DNA from: a virus
Lineage: Duplodnaviria > Heunggongvirae > Uroviricota > Caudoviricetes
Direction: 5' to 3' (one strand)
IMG/VR virus record: IMGVR_UViG_2563366980_000004
DNA length: 45,423 nucleotides
Below the pieces are notes generated by a model. That model made no database searches. It saw nothing but the letters and a program-made list of their open reading frames with translations, and was not told the origin of the DNA. A program made the translations under genes and the position numbers. Positions 1-24,451 of the stretch are shown here, in pieces. The number at the start of each line of letters is the position of its first letter. The stretch's first letter is position 1.

Positions 1-90
1 TTGCCTCCCCCCCGTTGATGGGTAAAATAGCCGCAATTTTTCGTTTTCAACAAGCGCGGCGCGATGCCGCTTACTCAAGAAGAAAGAATT

Positions 91-165
91 ATGACGTTGT
101 CTCCTTATTTGCAAGAGGTGGCGAAGCGCCGCACTTTTGCCATTATTTCTCACCCCAATAATTAA
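91..165 (+). pseudogene. prfC: 5' remnant of peptide chain release factor 3 gene (prfC'), truncated at the prophage junction
   Basis: ATG at 91 preceded by AAGAAGAAAG; translation [22 protein letters not shown] matches the RF3 N-terminus as I recall it up to the start of the GTPase P-loop, then diverges (NN-stop) where phage DNA begins. Confidence 0.55.
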
Positions 166-319
166 GTCCAAATTAAAGCTCTTTCACTCTTTCAAAATCC
201 TTTCAGTTAATTGAGGTCGAGCTATATAACTCATTTAAATACATTTGGTTATGTGACTTCTTTAATTGAAAATTCTTTCATGTAACTTTAAATCGATCAG
301 GTTGCTTTCATCAAAAATC

Positions 320-376
320 TGTACATATGCTTGTACATAATGTACAAAGCAGCAGAGGTGTTTTGCGATTTGTACA
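320..376. promoter_or_regulatory. Cluster of four TGTACA motifs overlapping the integrase promoter/leader
   Basis: TGTACA at about 320, 332, 341 and 371; TTGTACAtaaTGTACAA forms a near-palindrome about 40 bp upstream of the int ATG. Confidence 0.35.
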
Positions 377-385
377 AGGTGAGTA

Positions 386-1600
386 ATGGCGCTGTCTGAT
401 GCGTGGTTGCGTTCAGTCGTTGGAAAGGAACGTGATAAGGTTTTGGTTAAATCCGATCGTGATGGTCTGTCTGTCAGAGTATCACCGAAAGGTCGCGTAG
501 TGTTCCAATATCGTTATCAATGGGCAGGGAAAGGTGAGCGTCTTGATATCGGAACTTACCCGGCAACTGGATTAAAAGAGGCCAGAGAAGAAGTTATTCG
601 TCTCCGTGGTGAACTCGAGTCAAACCGTAATCCACGATTGGTCAAGCAGGCTGAAAAACGAAAAGCTACTGAAGCCATGACGGTAGAGTCTGTGATCCGT
701 GCCTGGTATGAAGCATATTGTGTAAAAAATAAAAAAGGTTCTGAACAGATACTCCGCTCGTTTGAGCTGCACCTGTTCTCTAAAATCGGGAATATCCCTC
801 ACGATGCAGCTACATTGCATGATTGGTTAGAAGTCCTGGAGCCTCTTAGCACTAAGACTCCAGCAATAGCAGACCGATTGCTAATTAACGCAAAGCAGGC
901 CCATGTCTGGGCGTATAAGAGAAAGCTCATTGAAACTCGCCCGCTGTCGGATATCACGGGTAAAGATATGGATATCCGTAAAGGTCAGAAGAAACGGTTT
1001 CTGACACATGATGAAATTAAAATCCTTTATGCTGCGATCGATGGTTCTCGAATGGTTCCTAAATACCGGGCCTTCATTAAACTATTGCTTCATTTTGGTT
1101 GCCGTAGTTCAGAGCTAATTACCGCCAGGGTGGACGATTTTGATTTCATTAATAAAGTATGGACTGTACCACCAGAACGACATAAGACTGGGGAGATAAC
1201 AGGCGAACCGCTAAAGCGGCCCATTATTGAACCGGTTGAAGAGCTTATAAAGTACGCTATTTCTATGAACAATGGTTCCGATATGCTTTTTACTAAGGAA
1301 GGAAGCAGGGAACCCGTTGGTCGGACATCATTGCAGTCGCTGCCTTACAATTTAATGCAGTATGCATGGCGGCGTTTGGGTTATCAATTCCCTCATTGGT
1401 CTCTTCATGATTTGAGGCGAACAGCACGAACAAACTTTTCTGATCTTACTGCGCCTCATATTGCAGAAATTATGCTAGGTCATAAACTGCCAGGGGTATG
1501 GCAAGTTTATGACAAGAGCGATTATCTAGAAGAACAGCGTAAAGCCTACCAAGCGTGGTGGGAGAGGGTTGAATCGATCGTTACTTGTACTGGTTCATAA
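386..1600 (+). CDS. int: Tyrosine-type site-specific integrase
   Basis: 404-aa ORF with AAGGTGAG RBS; N-terminal arm-binding-like region and C-terminal catalytic region with the conserved HxLRRT-like signature (HDLRRTART) and a tyrosine near the C-terminus (VYDKSDY); first phage gene next to the junction. Confidence 0.9.
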   Translation: MALSDAWLRSVVGKERDKVLVKSDRDGLSVRVSPKGRVVFQYRYQWAGKGERLDIGTYPATGLKEAREEVIRLRGELESNRNPRLVKQAEKRKATEAMTVESVIRAWYEAYCVKNKKGSEQILRSFELHLFSKIGNIPHDAATLHDWLEVLEPLSTKTPAIADRLLINAKQAHVWAYKRKLIETRPLSDITGKDMDIRKGQKKRFLTHDEIKILYAAIDGSRMVPKYRAFIKLLLHFGCRSSELITARVDDFDFINKVWTVPPERHKTGEITGEPLKRPIIEPVEELIKYAISMNNGSDMLFTKEGSREPVGRTSLQSLPYNLMQYAWRRLGYQFPHWSLHDLRRTARTNFSDLTAPHIAEIMLGHKLPGVWQVYDKSDYLEEQRKAYQAWWERVESIVTCTGS

Positions 1601-1808
1601 TCGAAATGATATTTTGCATATCTAGTACGCAATAAAATATGACAGTCCGCTTTGAGCTGCGGGCATTGCTAGCAGCATTTTCTGTGAAGTAACGGGAGGT
1701 TGTTCAATATTGCCTCTGAAAAGGATAACCATTCAATTCTTCATTGAAAAAACTCATCGAAGATTTTATGGAGGGATGCAATTTATTTTGAGCGAATTTA
1801 ATTCATCA

Positions 1809-1893
1809 CTAATGATCCTACATAGTTATTGCCTTGCTCACTAAAAGGTGAGATTTCATTAGCTCACCAACAATAATTAAATAGGATCATTAG
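1809..1893. repeat. Perfect 12-bp inverted repeat (CTAATGATCCTA / TAGGATCATTAG) flanking about 60 bp that holds a nested CTCAC/GTGAG hairpin
   Basis: Read directly in the AT-rich spacer between the int stop and the 3' end of the minus-strand moron. Confidence 0.35.
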
Positions 1894-1975
1894 CACTTTA
1901 TATCAGGCTATAATTTTAATAAATTACGTTATTTAAAGCCATTTTCTCCATCAAGTAATATCTTCATGCTAATGT

Positions 1976-2971
1976 TCACTTTTGTTTTAGCTTTATAATT
2001 TCTGATATCATAGTTGTTAGCTTTGAATCGGAAAGATTCTGCAGTCTATCTTTCTCAATAGAAACTGTAGTTTGTCCCTTTTCTAATATGAAATTTCTTT
2101 CTGTTTTCATTAAAAGCATTGCCAACTCTTTTATCATGTCTTCGTTCTTGAATTCTTGAGCATATTTTAGAGACATGACTTTCATCTCAATATTTGTGAT
2201 TTCATTCTGAAAATATTTGATTTCGTCAAACCCATTTTTATAGAGGCGTAGAAAAAAATAAGCAAACAATTCAACGACTATTACAAATGATAATTTAGGA
2301 AGGTGATGAATAAAAAATCCCACCCCATCCACAATGTCTGGCGCGCTGTAAAGAAAGTAAGCAAGAGATAATATCCCTGTCAACGCAATTATTGTTCCGA
2401 TTGCAAGGTTAAGCCCACCTCGTCGATTGAGTCTGTCTATTTCAGACTCTAATCTTAGAACCATATCAGTATGGAGTTTATGTAAGCTGTAGCTCTTCTT
2501 AAAATCAGATATATCGCTTTTTAGGCTGTTATCTGCCAGAAGTATTGTGTTTCCAATTATTCTCTTTTTTGCATCGGATATTAACTTCTCCCTTTCACTC
2601 TCTGTTATTTCAATGGAAACTCCGGAAGATGTTCTATTTTCAATTTCGCTCAATTTTTTATTTAGCTTAACTATTTCTTTGTGAAAAATATATCTCGTGT
2701 TTTCAATATCTCTACCACCAATTCCTTTGTTTAAATAAGAAGTCATTATTGCGACAAAAGAACCAACAAAAACTAGGGCAGTTGCTGTAAATAAAATAAA
2801 CTCTTTCTTCTCGTTTATTAAATTTACTATTGATGATGATTCCAGTTGAATGTCTGAAAGCGAAGTTTTAAGCACAAAATTCATCACAGGTGAAACCATG
2901 ATTATGGCAACAACTATAATAAATCCATATTTTTTTATAATGTAAATAAGAAGGCCAAATAAATCTTTCAT
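1976..2971 (-). CDS. Hypothetical integral membrane protein with four predicted TM helices and coiled-coil segments (AT-rich moron)
   Basis: 338-aa ORF (TTG at 2992; first ATG at 2971); hydrophobic segments at roughly residues 15-37, 66-87, 195-217 and 232-250 separated by K/E-rich heptad-like regions; markedly AT-rich relative to flanking phage genes; no family recognised. Confidence 0.7.
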   Translation of the reverse strand: MKDLFGLLIYIIKKYGFIIVVAIIMVSPVMNFVLKTSLSDIQLESSSIVNLINEKKEFILFTATALVFVGSFVAIMTSYLNKGIGGRDIENTRYIFHKEIVKLNKKLSEIENRTSSGVSIEITESEREKLISDAKKRIIGNTILLADNSLKSDISDFKKSYSLHKLHTDMVLRLESEIDRLNRRGGLNLAIGTIIALTGILSLAYFLYSAPDIVDGVGFFIHHLPKLSFVIVVELFAYFFLRLYKNGFDEIKYFQNEITNIEMKVMSLKYAQEFKNEDMIKELAMLLMKTERNFILEKGQTTVSIEKDRLQNLSDSKLTTMISEIIKLKQK

Positions 2972-3344
2972 TTTATCTTTTACCTGAAACAAATTTTTAT
3001 TAAAGTAACTTAAAAAATGATTGATTGCAAGATTTACTATTGCTGTTCATTTTAAATTACTATACCCCCCTATGCATACATATAATCCCATAGGGGAGAA
3101 GTTTATTAGTTAGTTAAGTTGAAGGCTATACCTACAATCTAATTCCCCTCCAACCTAACATGCACAAGCGTCAACCTATCGGTAGTGATAATTTTATGAG
3201 GATACGTATAAACAAGATTCTGAGTTGCTCCTATTCATTAAGACAATACATTTTGTAACTTCTGCTTTTGGCTCAGGGTGGGGTGTGAGATTAGGTTTGG
3301 CTCTGTGCCATAGATGTGTCAGTTCACATCTGAGCTAATACACA

Positions 3345-3539
3345 TTACTCAATCACTCCAGCAAACCTATATATCTTGTGTGACGCCCATTTATTTGGGC
3401 ATGATTTAATATCAGGATCTGGAAAATCAGGCCTGTATTTCTGGCCAGTTCTCCGGTTTACGCTGTTCCAGCGAAGAACTGTCGATACTGAAACGCCACA
3501 GAAGTCGGCGACTTGTTTAGTTGTCATTAAGTTGTTCAT
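3345..3539 (-). CDS. AlpA/excisionase-like small DNA-binding protein
   Basis: 64 aa; TKQVADFCGVSVSTVLRW helix-turn-helix followed by an FPxP motif, as in AlpA/Xis-family proteins; sits at the head of the leftward operon facing int. Confidence 0.7.
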   Translation of the reverse strand: MNNLMTTKQVADFCGVSVSTVLRWNSVNRRTGQKYRPDFPDPDIKSCPNKWASHKIYRFAGVIE

Positions 3540-4333
3540 TACTTCACCTCCTGCGGCGGTTCCGGTAGCGGCATCCAGTGGGTTACTTTCGATGCCGGTT
3601 CTTCCACATCGTCAGTAACTGCCCACCATTTGTTTCTCGACCAATCGTAATACCCTTCGAAGGTATCGCACTCAGTCCAGCCGTAAGACTTCCCCCAACA
3701 CCAAACATACTGTTTATCGTTCGGCATTCGCTCACTACAGCTTATCCAACCATCCGGAGTTACCGGAGAGTTGCCCGATAGCGCATTACGCAATCGCTCC
3801 AGCTTCACGTATTCCTGAACCCTGTTTCCGTCGCATGCCTGAAGCCATTGCGCAGCCTTTTGCGCATCAGTGTGAAAGGCACAAGTGCGACCGTCATCAA
3901 ATTGCATTTCGTAGAGGTCAGCAACTTGTTCAAACTGCGTGTGTTGTGACTTGTAAGTTTGGCTTACAGGTTCGGCACCATGAAGCATGGCGGCGCGGCA
4001 GGCGTTCCAGCCATCAACATAATCAAACGTATTGCTATCGTCTGGCTCGATTTCATCTGGCACTATCAGCACCGGCTGGACGGTGACATTGGCAAAGGCA
4101 GCACGCAACCCGGTTTTAATTTCTTCGATTTCATCAGAGCCAAGCGATGAGTCAGAAAGCGCATGGTGGAATGCGTAAGCCATGTCGTCGTTTACTGCCA
4201 CCGGCTCTGCTTCCAGTGATGCCAGCGCGATAAGCGCCAGCTCACGAATTTCACCGCCGTCTATATCGTCAATGTCATCGCGGCCAGAAATGTTAGCCAG
4301 CCATTGCAGTCGCTCTTTGGAAATAGTGATCAT
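3539..4333 (-). CDS. Phage protein with C-terminal DUF551 domain
   Basis: 264 aa; C-terminal W-rich region ending VTHWMPLPEPP is characteristic of DUF551; N-terminal domain is paralogous to ORF 4697..5053. Confidence 0.8.
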   Translation of the reverse strand: MITISKERLQWLANISGRDDIDDIDGGEIRELALIALASLEAEPVAVNDDMAYAFHHALSDSSLGSDEIEEIKTGLRAAFANVTVQPVLIVPDEIEPDDSNTFDYVDGWNACRAAMLHGAEPVSQTYKSQHTQFEQVADLYEMQFDDGRTCAFHTDAQKAAQWLQACDGNRVQEYVKLERLRNALSGNSPVTPDGWISCSERMPNDKQYVWCWGKSYGWTECDTFEGYYDWSRNKWWAVTDDVEEPASKVTHWMPLPEPPQEVK

Positions 4334-7322: not shown

Positions 7323-7950
7323 TTTGCTGCTCCTCATCATATCGACCCTGCAATGTCGGTTAGTTTCTCCACAAAACAGAGAAGAACACCTGCGGTGGTA
7401 GCCGCCCGGATGGATTGGGTTATGAGCCCGTCGTCCGATGATGTTCTTCTCTGTTTTGTAAAAAGAGCGGTACCAGCCGGAAGCAAGTGTACAAACTGGT
7501 ACCGCCAAAGCAGTGGCTGTTGTGGTGACCGGTGCTGATCTCCGGCTTGCGGTTATTTCAGACTCTCACGGGCATTTAATTGCCCCGCCGAACAGCTCTT
7601 TTCCGCAATAGCTGCAATGTCTTTCGCGCATCAGCCTGCGCATTCACCACAACGCTGAGAGCACTTAGCCAGTTACGGCACCACACTTTGTCGCGGTTCC
7701 ATAAATGCCCTCATCGTTGCACCCTGGTCTCTTCCCAGGCGTCAAACCGAATCGCCACGCTGGTTAGGCGTCTTATCAGCATCATCATTGACTTGCACAT
7801 TCCGGCTACCTGGTTTGTTTGCCCGAGCAAGGAGTGGATTGTCCCCTTTAACGTCCCCAGACCGCTAACGACGCATGTGCCATACGCCGTGTTACAACCA
7901 AATTTTGTTAGTACCTTGTTTGTTTGTCTGGAAAGAAAGATAAAATGAAG

Positions 7951-8044: not shown

Positions 8045-8737
8045 TTAATTGTGTCGCTTAAGGGTTTGTGACTGGCTGATTAAGACCTTTCCAAAGACCA
8101 TAAACCGGTGTTCATTTTCGCTGGTAATTCCCCATTCACGGTAAATCTGGTTATCAGAAATCACCAGTAGTTTGTCAGGTATCATTTGCAGTCGTTTGAC
8201 ATAAATTTTATCATCAAAACCAAATACATAGATACCATCTCCATCAAACTGATTGATACTGACATCAACGAAGATGAGATCTCCTGGCTCAATGGTTGGA
8301 CACATACTGTCCCCACGAACGTTGATAACTTTAATGTGATTGGCTGGCCGTCCGCCAAACATCGATACAGCATTATCAGTTCTGTATTCAATGGCATGAA
8401 TCACATCAATGACATCACCGCCCTGGATAAGGCCATTTCCCGCACTGGCACTGACATCCAGCATTTCAATACGGAATACATCCTTCACCTGCGCAACATC
8501 CTCACTAATACTGTTTTTACATACAGTATTACTTTTGAAGTCTGAGGTAAAGAGATCAGCAATATCAACACCTAAGCTCCTGGCAATATTACTCAGGGCT
8601 TGTTCAGTGAATTGTTTCTGCTTACCTGTTTCCAGGCGTGAGATATTCGCCGCATCCACTCCTATTGCTTCAGCGAGATCGGCGATTTTCATGTTCTTCG
8701 CCTGGCGAAGTTGTCTGACTCGGTTTCCTATGTTCAT
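8045..8737 (-). CDS. cI: CI-type prophage repressor (HTH_XRE + S24 LexA-like peptidase domain)
   Basis: 230 aa; N-terminal HTH (LRQAKNMKIADLAEAIGVDAANISRLETGK) and C-terminal S24 signature (RGDSMCPTIEPGDLIFVD...YVKRL); divergent from the cro-like gene. Confidence 0.9.
   Translation of the reverse strand: MNIGNRVRQLRQAKNMKIADLAEAIGVDAANISRLETGKQKQFTEQALSNIARSLGVDIADLFTSDFKSNTVCKNSISEDVAQVKDVFRIEMLDVSASAGNGLIQGGDVIDVIHAIEYRTDNAVSMFGGRPANHIKVINVRGDSMCPTIEPGDLIFVDVSINQFDGDGIYVFGFDDKIYVKRLQMIPDKLLVISDNQIYREWGITSENEHRFMVFGKVLISQSQTLKRHN
8509..8528. promoter_or_regulatory. Consensus-like SOS (LexA) box inside the cI coding sequence
   Basis: TACTGTTTTTACATACAGTA matches CTGT-N8-ACAG with TA flanks; in the HTH-peptidase linker region of cI. 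Confidence 0.35.
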
Positions 8738-19516: not shown

Positions 19517-19560
19517 CTTTTTATTGCCATTATCAAAGCCACTCCCTACAGAGTGGCTTT
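19517..19560. repeat. Perfect 19-bp inverted repeat with 6-nt loop
   Basis: GCCATTATCAAAGCCACTC - CCTACA - GAGTGGCTTTGATAATGGC. Confidence 0.5.
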
Positions 19561-19954
19561 GATAATGGCTTATACCCTACACGGGATAGCTTAACTGATA
19601 TCCCTTTTAACGGATAAAGGTATTCAAGCCTGACACATCATGCGCTGTATCGTCGCCGTATTCCCGTATTAACAGAGACCGTAGCCCGACGGGGAACTCC
19701 TTCTGCGCGAGTGTGCGGGAATAATCAAAAACGATGCACACCGGGTTTTTACCGCGTTTATGGTTCGCGGGTTTGTCCCTCATGCTCGCCAGTCCTGTGC
19801 GGGGGTGGAAGAAACAGGACACTTACACAGATTCTTGTGGGCACGATGCTATGCCTTTCTGGATTATCCCGATGCCATTCATGCAAGGCGTTGTATCAGA
19901 CGTTCGTCAGAGCTGTCAGGCTGACGGGTCCTCCCGGTGGGGTGGCCTGCCACG

Positions 19955-22943: not shown

Positions 22944-24451
22944 TGGCAATTCTTGATGATGTGATTGGCGTTTTTTCACCAGGATGGAAAGCGGCAAGGC
23001 TGCGTTCCCGTGCGGTGATCCAGGCTTATGAGGCCGTAAAAACGACGCGGACACACAAAGCCCGGCGGGAAAACCGAACTGCCGACCAGTTAAGCCAGTA
23101 CGGGGCCGTGTCGTTACGTGAGCAGGCCCGTTACCTTGATAACAACCACGATCTGGTTATTGGTGTATTTGACAAGCTGGAAGAACGGGTGGTGGGGAAA
23201 AACGGGATTATTGTCGAGCCACATCCGGTATTACGCAATGGGGCCATTGCCCGTGATCTGGCAGCAGAGATACGCACCCGATGGAGTGAATGGTCTGTCA
23301 GTCCGGAAGTCACCGGGCAGTTTACCCGTCCGATGCTGGAACGTCTGATGCTGCGTACCTGGCTGCGCGATGGTGAGGTGTTTGCCCAGATGGTTTCCGG
23401 GCGCATAAACAGCCTGACGCCTTCTGCCGGTGTTCATTTCTGGCTGGAGGCGCTCGAGCCGGACTTTATTCCCATGACCAGTGATGAGAGCAACAGGCTG
23501 AATCAGGGCGTGTTTGTTGATGACTGGGGGCGTCCCGAAAAATATCTGGTGTATAAAAGCCGTCCCGTATCCGGGCGGCAGATGGAAACCAAAGAAGTGG
23601 ATGCAGAGCGAATGCTGCATCTTAAATTTGTTCGCCGTCTGCACCAGATGCGCGGGACGTCTTTGTTGTCCGGTGTGCTGATCCGCCTCAGTGCCCTGAA
23701 AGAGTATGAAGATTCTGAGCTGACTGCAGCAAGGATCGCCGCTGCTCTGGGGATGTACATCCGGAAAGGCGACGGGCAGAGCTATGAACCGGATGGTAAT
23801 GGCAGCAAGGAGAATGAACGCGAGCTTACCATTCAGCCAGGCATTATTTACGACGATCTGAAACCCGGCGAAGAAATCGGAATGGTGAAGTCGGATCGTC
23901 CCAATCCTAACCTTGAAACTTTTCGTAATGGTCAGTTGCGTGCCGTGGCGGCGGGCAGTCGTCTGAGTTTTTCCAGTACGGCACGCAACTATAACGGCAC
24001 TTACAGCGCCCAGCGTCAGGAGCTGGTTGAATCCACTGATGGCTACCTGATCCTGCAGGACTGGTTTATTGGTGCCGTCACCCGCCCGATGTATCGTGCC
24101 TGGCTGAAACAGGCTGTGGCATCCGGTGTTATCAGGCTACCCCGCGATCTTGACCGTTCTTCACTGTATACCGCGGTGTATTCCGGACCGGTGATGCCGT
24201 GGATTGACCCTGTTAAGGAGGCTGAGGCCTGGAAAATTCAGATTCGTGGCGGAGCGGCGACAGAATCAGACTGGGTACGTGCAGGTGGTCGTAATCCGGA
24301 TGATGTCAAACGTCGGCGCAAGGCAGAAATTGATGAAAACCGCAAGCTGGATCTGGTATTTGATACCGATCCGGCCAGTGATAAAGGAGGCAGCAGTGCC
24401 GCAACGAAACGACAGGAGCCGCAGCACACCGACGACCAGTCCGAAGAATAA
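22943..24451 (+). CDS. B: Portal protein (lambda gpB family)
   Basis: 503 aa from MAILDD (TGATG overlap with W); size and position typical of lambda-family portal. Confidence 0.9.
   Translation: MAILDDVIGVFSPGWKAARLRSRAVIQAYEAVKTTRTHKARRENRTADQLSQYGAVSLREQARYLDNNHDLVIGVFDKLEERVVGKNGIIVEPHPVLRNGAIARDLAAEIRTRWSEWSVSPEVTGQFTRPMLERLMLRTWLRDGEVFAQMVSGRINSLTPSAGVHFWLEALEPDFIPMTSDESNRLNQGVFVDDWGRPEKYLVYKSRPVSGRQMETKEVDAERMLHLKFVRRLHQMRGTSLLSGVLIRLSALKEYEDSELTAARIAAALGMYIRKGDGQSYEPDGNGSKENERELTIQPGIIYDDLKPGEEIGMVKSDRPNPNLETFRNGQLRAVAAGSRLSFSSTARNYNGTYSAQRQELVESTDGYLILQDWFIGAVTRPMYRAWLKQAVASGVIRLPRDLDRSSLYTAVYSGPVMPWIDPVKEAEAWKIQIRGGAATESDWVRAGGRNPDDVKRRRKAEIDENRKLDLVFDTDPASDKGGSSAATKRQEPQHTDDQSEE

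Follow-up and report, generated by a model that had tools for sequence, protein, structure and literature searches.

A single-copy inverted repeat in the 3' untranslated region of a prophage moron cassette of Escherichia coli: a possible RNA stem-loop under weak selection

What is the inverted repeat that lies between the integrase gene and a convergent moron at one end of an Escherichia coli prophage, and which of its two neighbours does it belong to? The question was raised by an initial annotation of a 45,423-nt stretch of viral DNA (IMG/VR record IMGVR_UViG_2563366980_000004; the whole stretch is hereafter called the window), in which the repeat was read as a MITE-like or palindromic unit, as a bidirectional terminator insulating int from the moron, or as a scar of the recombination that brought the moron in. 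The window is 100% identical to sequence of the E. coli ST95-type strains UTI89, APEC O1, S88 and NU14. It presumably starts with the 5' end of prfC, as read from the translated sequence; RefSeq has only a truncated hypothetical protein there. The tyrosine integrase gene (386–1600, + strand; Arm-DNA-bind_3, Phage_int_M and Phage_integrase domains) converges with the moron (1976–2971, − strand), and the repeat was confirmed to lie between the two. The moron is the last gene of a leftward gene block, and the usual early genes of a lambdoid prophage are found beyond the moron. In E. coli SCU-306 (L004; loci used for comparison are referred to by such numbers) the same prophage end is decaying, with int frameshifted and the moron no longer annotated (equivalent positions 1612–2869 and 3187–4182); the hairpin described below is kept there despite this decay, with one U.G wobble.

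The moron encodes a 331-aa membrane/coiled-coil protein with transmembrane and coiled-coil segments, which is annotated as hypothetical (RefSeq WP_000653746.1); its mechanical open reading frame reaches position 2992 by way of an upstream TTG. Pfam, PADLOC and PDB profile searches gave no informative match for its function, the PADLOC search yielding one marginal match to a 2TM effector (E-value, 0.0075). No homologues were found in cultured phages, and no sigma-70-type promoter was found upstream of the gene. The family to which the protein belongs is very widespread and consists of unannotated membrane proteins sharing a conserved C-terminal domain of about 160 aa; it extends over Proteobacteria, Bacteroidota, Acidobacteriota, Planctomycetota and others, and one relative is labelled 'MotA/TolQ/ExbB proton channel domain-containing' by one source. 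Members occupy at least three different moron slots in phages of the E. coli group, and the Pantoea homologue is placed in a tail-fibre-assembly region.

Perfect 12-bp arms bracketing about 60 bp had been reported, and these were recovered exactly: CTAATGATCCTA at 1809–1820 is matched by its reverse complement TAGGATCATTAG at 1882–1893, with 61 bp between them. The repeat lengthens inward to 23-nt arms (left arm, 1809–1831; right arm, 1871–1893), which are 87% complementary and separated by 39 nt; as DNA, neither arm is assigned to a strand. Shuffling the whole window yields at least one perfect 12-bp inverted repeat within 100 bp in 26% of cases, and shuffling at the AT-rich composition of the 1.7-kb cassette (32% G+C) does so in 3%; the window itself holds three further repeats of this kind. 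Such a repeat is thus, on its own, weak evidence. The full element at 1809–1893 is nevertheless non-random because of its extended 23-nt arms and its fold. Elsewhere in the window, a second long inverted repeat of the same geometry (7371–7395 and 7435–7459; 25-nt arms, 88% complementary, 39 nt between) is located in the leftward early region, with a small gene on one side and the gene for a cI-like repressor (8045–8737, − strand) on the other. A perfect 19-bp palindrome with a 6-nt spacer (19,526–19,569) and a perfect 13-bp inverted repeat whose arms are 31 nt apart (23,934–23,990) were also observed.

Folded as RNA, a 106-nt stretch containing the element reaches −29.1 kcal/mol on the + strand and −33.5 kcal/mol on the − strand, with z-scores of −5.55 and −5.35, respectively, and none of 200 dinucleotide shuffles folded as well. 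On the − strand, which is the strand of the moron, the predicted fold is a stem-loop of 85 nt in which about 24 base pairs are nearly continuous. Although this strand is always 4–9 kcal/mol more stable, its shuffles are likewise more stable and the z-scores of the two strands are equal, so that folding energy was rejected as a means of assigning the element to a strand. Among wobble-type substitutions, those in favour of the gene strand prevail by about 3–4 to 1, in numbers too small to count. Searches of window positions 1–4000 with the Rfam 15 covariance models returned only sub-threshold chance matches to eukaryotic families.

The interior of the element had been described as a nested CTCAC/GTGAG hairpin. 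Both motifs are present (1837–1841 and 1848–1852), but the minimum free energy fold of the + strand pairs GGTGAG (1847–1852) with CTCACC (1863–1868) instead, and it is this apical stem, not the CTCAC/GTGAG pairing, that has a counterpart in the ST80 homologue L003. Read on the gene strand from 1868 down to 1847, the apical hairpin has the form GGUGAG-N10-CUCACC and is followed by UUUU (complement of 1843–1846), which gives a weak terminator-like structure of −6.1 kcal/mol in the window and L004. Its counterpart in L003 (GGGAG-N11-CUCCC followed by UUUU) reaches −7.2 kcal/mol. The apical hairpin is limited to the window, L004 and L003, and is not formed in the L002 type, L085, L221 or L223; the T-run beside it is invariant even in variants that do not form the hairpin.

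Whether such an element is mobile was judged from its distribution. Of 5,426 complete E. coli genomes, 65 contain a match to a 121-nt query around the repeat, always at exactly one site, which lies just 3' of the 331-aa gene or a homologue of it; no plasmid or cultured phage was matched. A degenerate pattern of the inner stem, run against 2.9 million viral contigs and a metagenome collection, recovered only variants of the same cassette and chance AT-rich matches. The search for other copies that had been proposed together with the MITE-like reading, covering E. coli genomes, phages, plasmids, viral contigs and metagenomes, thus returned no unrelated ones. An 81%-identical copy is found in the same prfC prophage slot in L002, just 3' of the homologue of the 331-aa gene, and L246 and L247 are of this L002 type. 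A 75%-identical copy is found elsewhere in L003, again 3' of a 331-aa homologue, in an island that adjoins a remnant of tRNA-Pro, adjacent to the vat island. Further variants accompany proteins with identities of 75% (L085), 72% (L221, at a prophage end beside ssrA), 70% (L223) and 76% (L250, in another context). Distant homologues with unrelated downstream sequence were found in other phages in a KilA-N/ANT-RusA slot (L087, L222 and L249) and in Pantoea (L088). Wherever a homologous cassette retains this stretch, the homologous sequence is there, in intact or decayed form, and no empty sites occur among these cassettes.

The repeat is therefore a fixed, single-copy part of one gene cassette. 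Of the features expected of a MITE, only terminal inverted repeats are present (12 bp, extending to 23 nt at 87%); dispersed copies, target-site duplication and empty-site polymorphism were not found, and the mobile-unit reading is therefore refuted by the single copy per genome, its fixed place, the lack of half-sites in the window and the lack of empty sites. Other actions at the level of DNA (binding of a dimeric protein, formation of a cruciform or switching by Dam methylation) were weighed together with transposition, as the perfect arms each carry a GATC (1814–1817 and 1885–1888). These GATC sites are not conserved, both being absent from L003 and one being lost in most copies of the L002 type; half-site matches in the window with up to three mismatches number 17, against 28 expected, and an operator family was rejected; and the 2-bp CA/CA flank is the sole possible target duplication of an element that occurs once per genome, without dispersed copies or empty sites. 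The DNA-level reading is thus largely refuted, and we regard it as extremely unlikely. An integron attC site was also rejected: no RYYYAAC or GTTRRRY cores occur at the arm ends on either strand, and the neighbouring integrase has a phage-type architecture.

The limits of the cassette were approached from two sides. Homology of the window to prophages with the same integrase stops at 1591–1657 (at 1657 in L228 and L231) and resumes at 3252–3295, and moron cassettes found in other contexts are homologous to the window between 1644/1645 and 3270–3281. Because both boundary estimates coincide (1644–1657 and 3252–3295), the cassette can be placed at about 1645–3283. Over its length of about 1.64 kb, it comprises an upstream region, the − strand gene for the 331-aa protein and roughly 310 nt of 3' untranslated region. 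The repeat lies about 145–165 nt inside the left junction, and its interior position refutes the suggestion that it marks a recombination scar of moron acquisition, the junctions themselves being at 1644–1657 and 3252–3295.

The slot of the prfC prophages between int and a DUF551 gene (window 1600–3300) is a cargo hot spot. In other prophages it is occupied by a single gene, for a product of 413 aa (L228, + strand), 239 aa (L229) or 515 aa (L231, − strand), or by a pair of small genes (L230); with the 331-aa moron, at least five unrelated inserts were counted among prophages whose integrases are more than 93% identical. This type of integrase is present in about 700 of the 5,426 genomes.

Hairpin motifs of about 24 nt were observed at both cassette junctions and also flank other cargo genes; they share a common stem and have two types of loop, the L type (GTCCGCT-RTGAGCGAR-AGCGGAC) and the R type (YTCTGCT-TTTGGCACA-WAGCRGMC). 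A degenerate L-type copy, GTCCGC-TTTGAGCT-GCGGGC, occupies the left junction at 1645–1664, where homology to same-integrase prophages stops and that to moron cassettes starts, and a degenerate R-type copy, TTCTGCTTTTGGCTCAGGGTGGGG (consensus elsewhere, YTCTGCTTTTGGCACAWAGCRGMC), occupies the right junction at 3260–3283; neither is assigned to a strand. Four copies in L003 (1215–1238, 2419–2442, 2842–2865 and 4409–4432) bracket two adjacent cassettes, one with a HEPN-domain gene and one with the moron homologue, and two copies in L085 (1740–1763 and 2685–2708) flank a gene of 237 aa adjacent to the moron. Versions of their own also accompany other cargos of the prfC slot at the same junction (2739–2762 in L228; 2314–2338 in L229). 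In viral contigs, pairs of L and R motifs lie 1.0–1.8 kb apart; in the one case that was checked, L236, the motifs at 1072–1093 and 2867–2888 surround a 444-aa gene that appears FRG-domain-like by eye, and in L243 they lie beside a restriction-modification pair, also identified by eye. Homology breaks between cargo variants fall inside these boundary motifs or adjoin them, and by analogy the motifs may be PeSL-like shuffling sites.

One R-type copy overlaps a tRNA annotation. At L003 4409–4499 (NZ_CP031215.1, 2,315,259–2,315,340), RefSeq lists an 82-nt tRNA-Pro, ARAGORN calls no tRNA, and the 3' half matches, by eye, a proK-type tRNA. The R-type motif resembles, also by eye, the 5' end of tRNA-Pro (GGCACRTAGC..AGCC). 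The overlap may be a remnant of an att site or a coincidence.

Within the cassette, the repeat belongs to the 3' untranslated region (1665–1975, about 310 nt, − strand), which contains no conserved small ORF and no pseudogene remnant. In the order of the gene strand, the stop codon (1978–1976) is followed by 82 AT-rich nt, by the hairpin (1893 to 1809), by about 145 nt and by the short border hairpin (1664 to 1645). The repeat thus starts 83 nt past the moron stop codon, and as no terminator-like site is predicted between the two, the moron message is expected to cross it. Two short reading frames in the region were rejected as coding: in a 36-aa ORF on the − strand (1622–1732), non-synonymous differences between L002 and the window (9) outnumber synonymous ones (2) and the frame is shifted by a loop indel in L003, and a 44-aa ORF on the + strand (1710–1844) is broken by indels. 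The region was likewise rejected as the remnant of a lost partner gene, since tblastn with the proteins encoded downstream of homologues gave no match.

The proposal that the repeat is a bidirectional terminator insulating int from the moron was retained only in part. A canonical intrinsic terminator has a G+C-rich stem, a loop of 3–8 nt and a U-tract, and the whole repeat has none of these: its stem is AT-rich, its interior measures 39 nt, and no run of U follows the whole stem on either strand (UGAUGAAUUAAAUU on the − strand and CACUUUAUAUC on the + strand). Only the apical hairpin is followed by UUUU, and its loop is of 10 nt. A looser version, in which a 3' structure acts at the level of the transcripts between the two convergent genes, survives. 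The element travels with the moron and not with int: L228 has a 100% identical int, a different cargo and no repeat, while in the L003 island and in L250 the element is linked to the 3' end of the moron even without an adjacent int.

The same linkage bears on the strand. The element follows the moron into contexts lacking int and is absent where an identical int is combined with other cargo, and for this reason the moron strand is preferred. Action on the + strand, by which the element would end or process int transcripts 209 nt downstream of int or give rise to a short antisense RNA reaching into the 3' end of the moron, would draw on the equal z-score of the + strand fold, on one stem position of the window that is a G.U pair when read on the + strand and A.C when read on the − strand, and on the moderately U-rich sequence past the stem on the + strand (CACUUUAUAU). 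However, same-integrase prophages with other cargo lack the element and int-less cassettes keep it; most wobble-type substitutions are tolerated on the − strand and not on the + strand; and the candidate + strand promoter (TTGAAA-17-TATGGA) is not conserved and lacks the conserved final T of the −10 hexamer. Promoters for an antisense RNA or sRNA were rejected, the candidate hexamers being weak and not conserved. Taken together, a role on the + strand appears very improbable.

It was then asked whether the structure is maintained. When each variant is folded singly, strong hairpins are predicted for the window, L004, the L002/L093/L247 type and L003 (z-scores from −4.1 to −6.9), and L250 has a weaker hairpin of the same architecture (z-score, −1.4). 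L085, L221 and L223 have homologous arms and no stable hairpin (z-scores from −1.0 to +2.2 over both strands). The homologous sequence is present in seven lineages, of which four fold and three have decayed. A neighbour-joining tree of the coding sequences has the form ((window, L002), ((L003, L221), L085), L223), with L222 outside, and because hairpin-bearing lineages occur in both major clades, the hairpin is probably ancestral to the cassette and has probably been lost three times.

Several substitutions between variants are suggestive. An outer-stem pair is C-G in the window and G-C in L003; an inner-stem pair is G-C in the L002 type, G.T in the window and A-T in L003; one position within the L002 type alternates between G.U and A-U on the gene strand; and the apical stem changes from GGTGAG/CTCACC in the window to GGGAG/CTCCC in L003. 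Over the alignment, which comprises about seven independent lineages, 89.0% of cells are paired; shuffling gives 88.2%, and 133 of 500 shuffles equal or exceed the observed share. Compensatory pairs number two, with 0.9 expected, a count matched by 98 of 500 shuffles, so that neither measure stands above the shuffles. The covariation term of RNAalifold is +1.1. Compared with L003, identity amounts to 69% at third codon positions, 77% in the repeat, 68% in the rest of the 3' region and 72% in the 5' region, and in the other homologue comparisons the repeat and the untranslated region likewise diverge at the rate of third codon positions. The 70–80% identity of the 3' region of about 310 nt was therefore rejected as a sign of constraint, and because the divergence equals that of third codon positions, sequence conservation proves common descent only, at a divergence that is not saturated. 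Judged from these comparisons, selection on the hairpin looks weak.

The main rival to a role in RNA is that the repeat is a functionless palindromic relic in the untranslated tail of the cassette, which drifts neutrally and of which the lineage of the window happens to keep a clean copy. This would agree with the divergence at the level of synonymous sites, with covariation that is not significant, with the loss of the hairpin in L085, L221 and L223, and with a perfect 12-bp repeat that, by itself, is not rare at this composition. On the other hand, a divergence of about 25% should break the pairing of 23-nt arms, yet L003 still folds with z-scores from −4.1 to −4.6, having exchanged a C-G pair for G-C and repaired an inner-stem pair, and the L002 type, with 26 near-continuous pairs, has the strongest fold of all variants. 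We consider neutral drift a real possibility, although a rather unlikely one.

The explanation that we tentatively prefer, and which falls short of being probable, is that the repeat acts as an RNA stem-loop in the 3' untranslated region of the moron, as a protection of the 3' end, a processing site or a barrier to read-through, under weak selection. The moron message would run through the repeat, 83 nt past the stop codon, and the repeat would fold in this RNA into the 85-nt stem-loop with its roughly 24 near-continuous pairs. Such a stem-loop could block 3'-to-5' exonucleases and/or offer a double-stranded processing site, and it could hinder read-through between the convergent transcripts of the moron and int. 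The hairpin would have been ancestral to the cassette and, under weak selection, would have persisted in four lineages and decayed in three.

The nested arrangement of the two hairpins allows a more specific reading, modelled on the retroregulation of phage lambda, where tI/sib is a weak terminator nested in a longer duplex 3' of int. Moron transcripts from the gene's own promoter would stop at the apical hairpin and its U4, whereas antiterminated read-through from the early-left operon would include the 3' arm, and the resulting long duplex would be cut by RNase III and the message degraded; the moron would then be on in lysogens and silenced in lytic growth. The long duplex (about 24 pairs in the window, 26 in the L002 type) has the length of at least about 20 bp that a sib-type site would need, a weak hairpin with UUUU is nested at its tip on the gene strand (−6.1 kcal/mol in the window and L004; −7.2 kcal/mol in L003), and the element lies 3' of a gene on the same strand that is the last in its leftward block. 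Against this, the L002 type has the best long stem but no apical hairpin, and where the apical stem does form it is weak, its loop measuring 10–11 nt; the element is also kept in L003, in an island that is not a prophage. Retroregulation of this kind therefore seems improbable. A wider version is put forward as speculation of low probability: a sib-like RNase III switch might tie a mobile moron to the state of the prophage within an undescribed class of hairpin-delimited cassettes, whose L- and R-type 24-nt boundary hairpins would allow cargo and defence-like genes to be shuttled between the att-proximal ends of enterobacterial prophages and islands.

Taken on its own, the repeat is one more 3'-UTR stem-loop on a prophage moron and is fairly ordinary. 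The main value of the analysis is negative, in that the element is neither a mobile repeat nor a recombination junction nor a classical terminator. If the preferred role in RNA is true, morons would carry their own post-transcriptional control beside a promoter and a terminator. The by-product is the more useful result: exchange points in the int-proximal slot of the prfC prophages coincide with hairpin motifs, which gives a handle on cargo swapping.

Among known systems, the closest likeness is to stem-loops that protect or process bacterial and phage mRNAs, such as REP-stabilised 3' ends and RNase III sites of the T7 R1.1 type. Like these, the repeat would form a long, stable hairpin soon past a stop codon and within the transcription unit, and it has no coding potential and no U-tract; it differs in being single-copy and cassette-specific, with no dispersed family and with a structure that is not formed in all lineages. 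With the lambda sib/tI retroregulator of int it shares a long duplex that lies 3' of a gene close to int and is tipped by a small terminator-like hairpin, a layout that could tell terminated from read-through transcripts. There is, however, no sequence similarity between the two; the repeat is tied to the moron and not to int, and is not parted from its gene by integration, and its nested terminator is weak and is missing in the L002 type. MITEs and the small palindromic repeats of enterobacteria resemble it in their terminal inverted repeats, short AT-rich interior and total length of about 85 bp, but the repeat occurs in one copy per genome at a fixed position, with no target duplication and no empty sites. 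The likeness to PeSL, finally, concerns the boundary hairpins and not the repeat: in both cases short conserved stem-loops border exchangeable, non-essential genes and the exchange points lie within them, while the boundary motifs described here belong to temperate enterobacterial prophages and islands and come with two types of loop.
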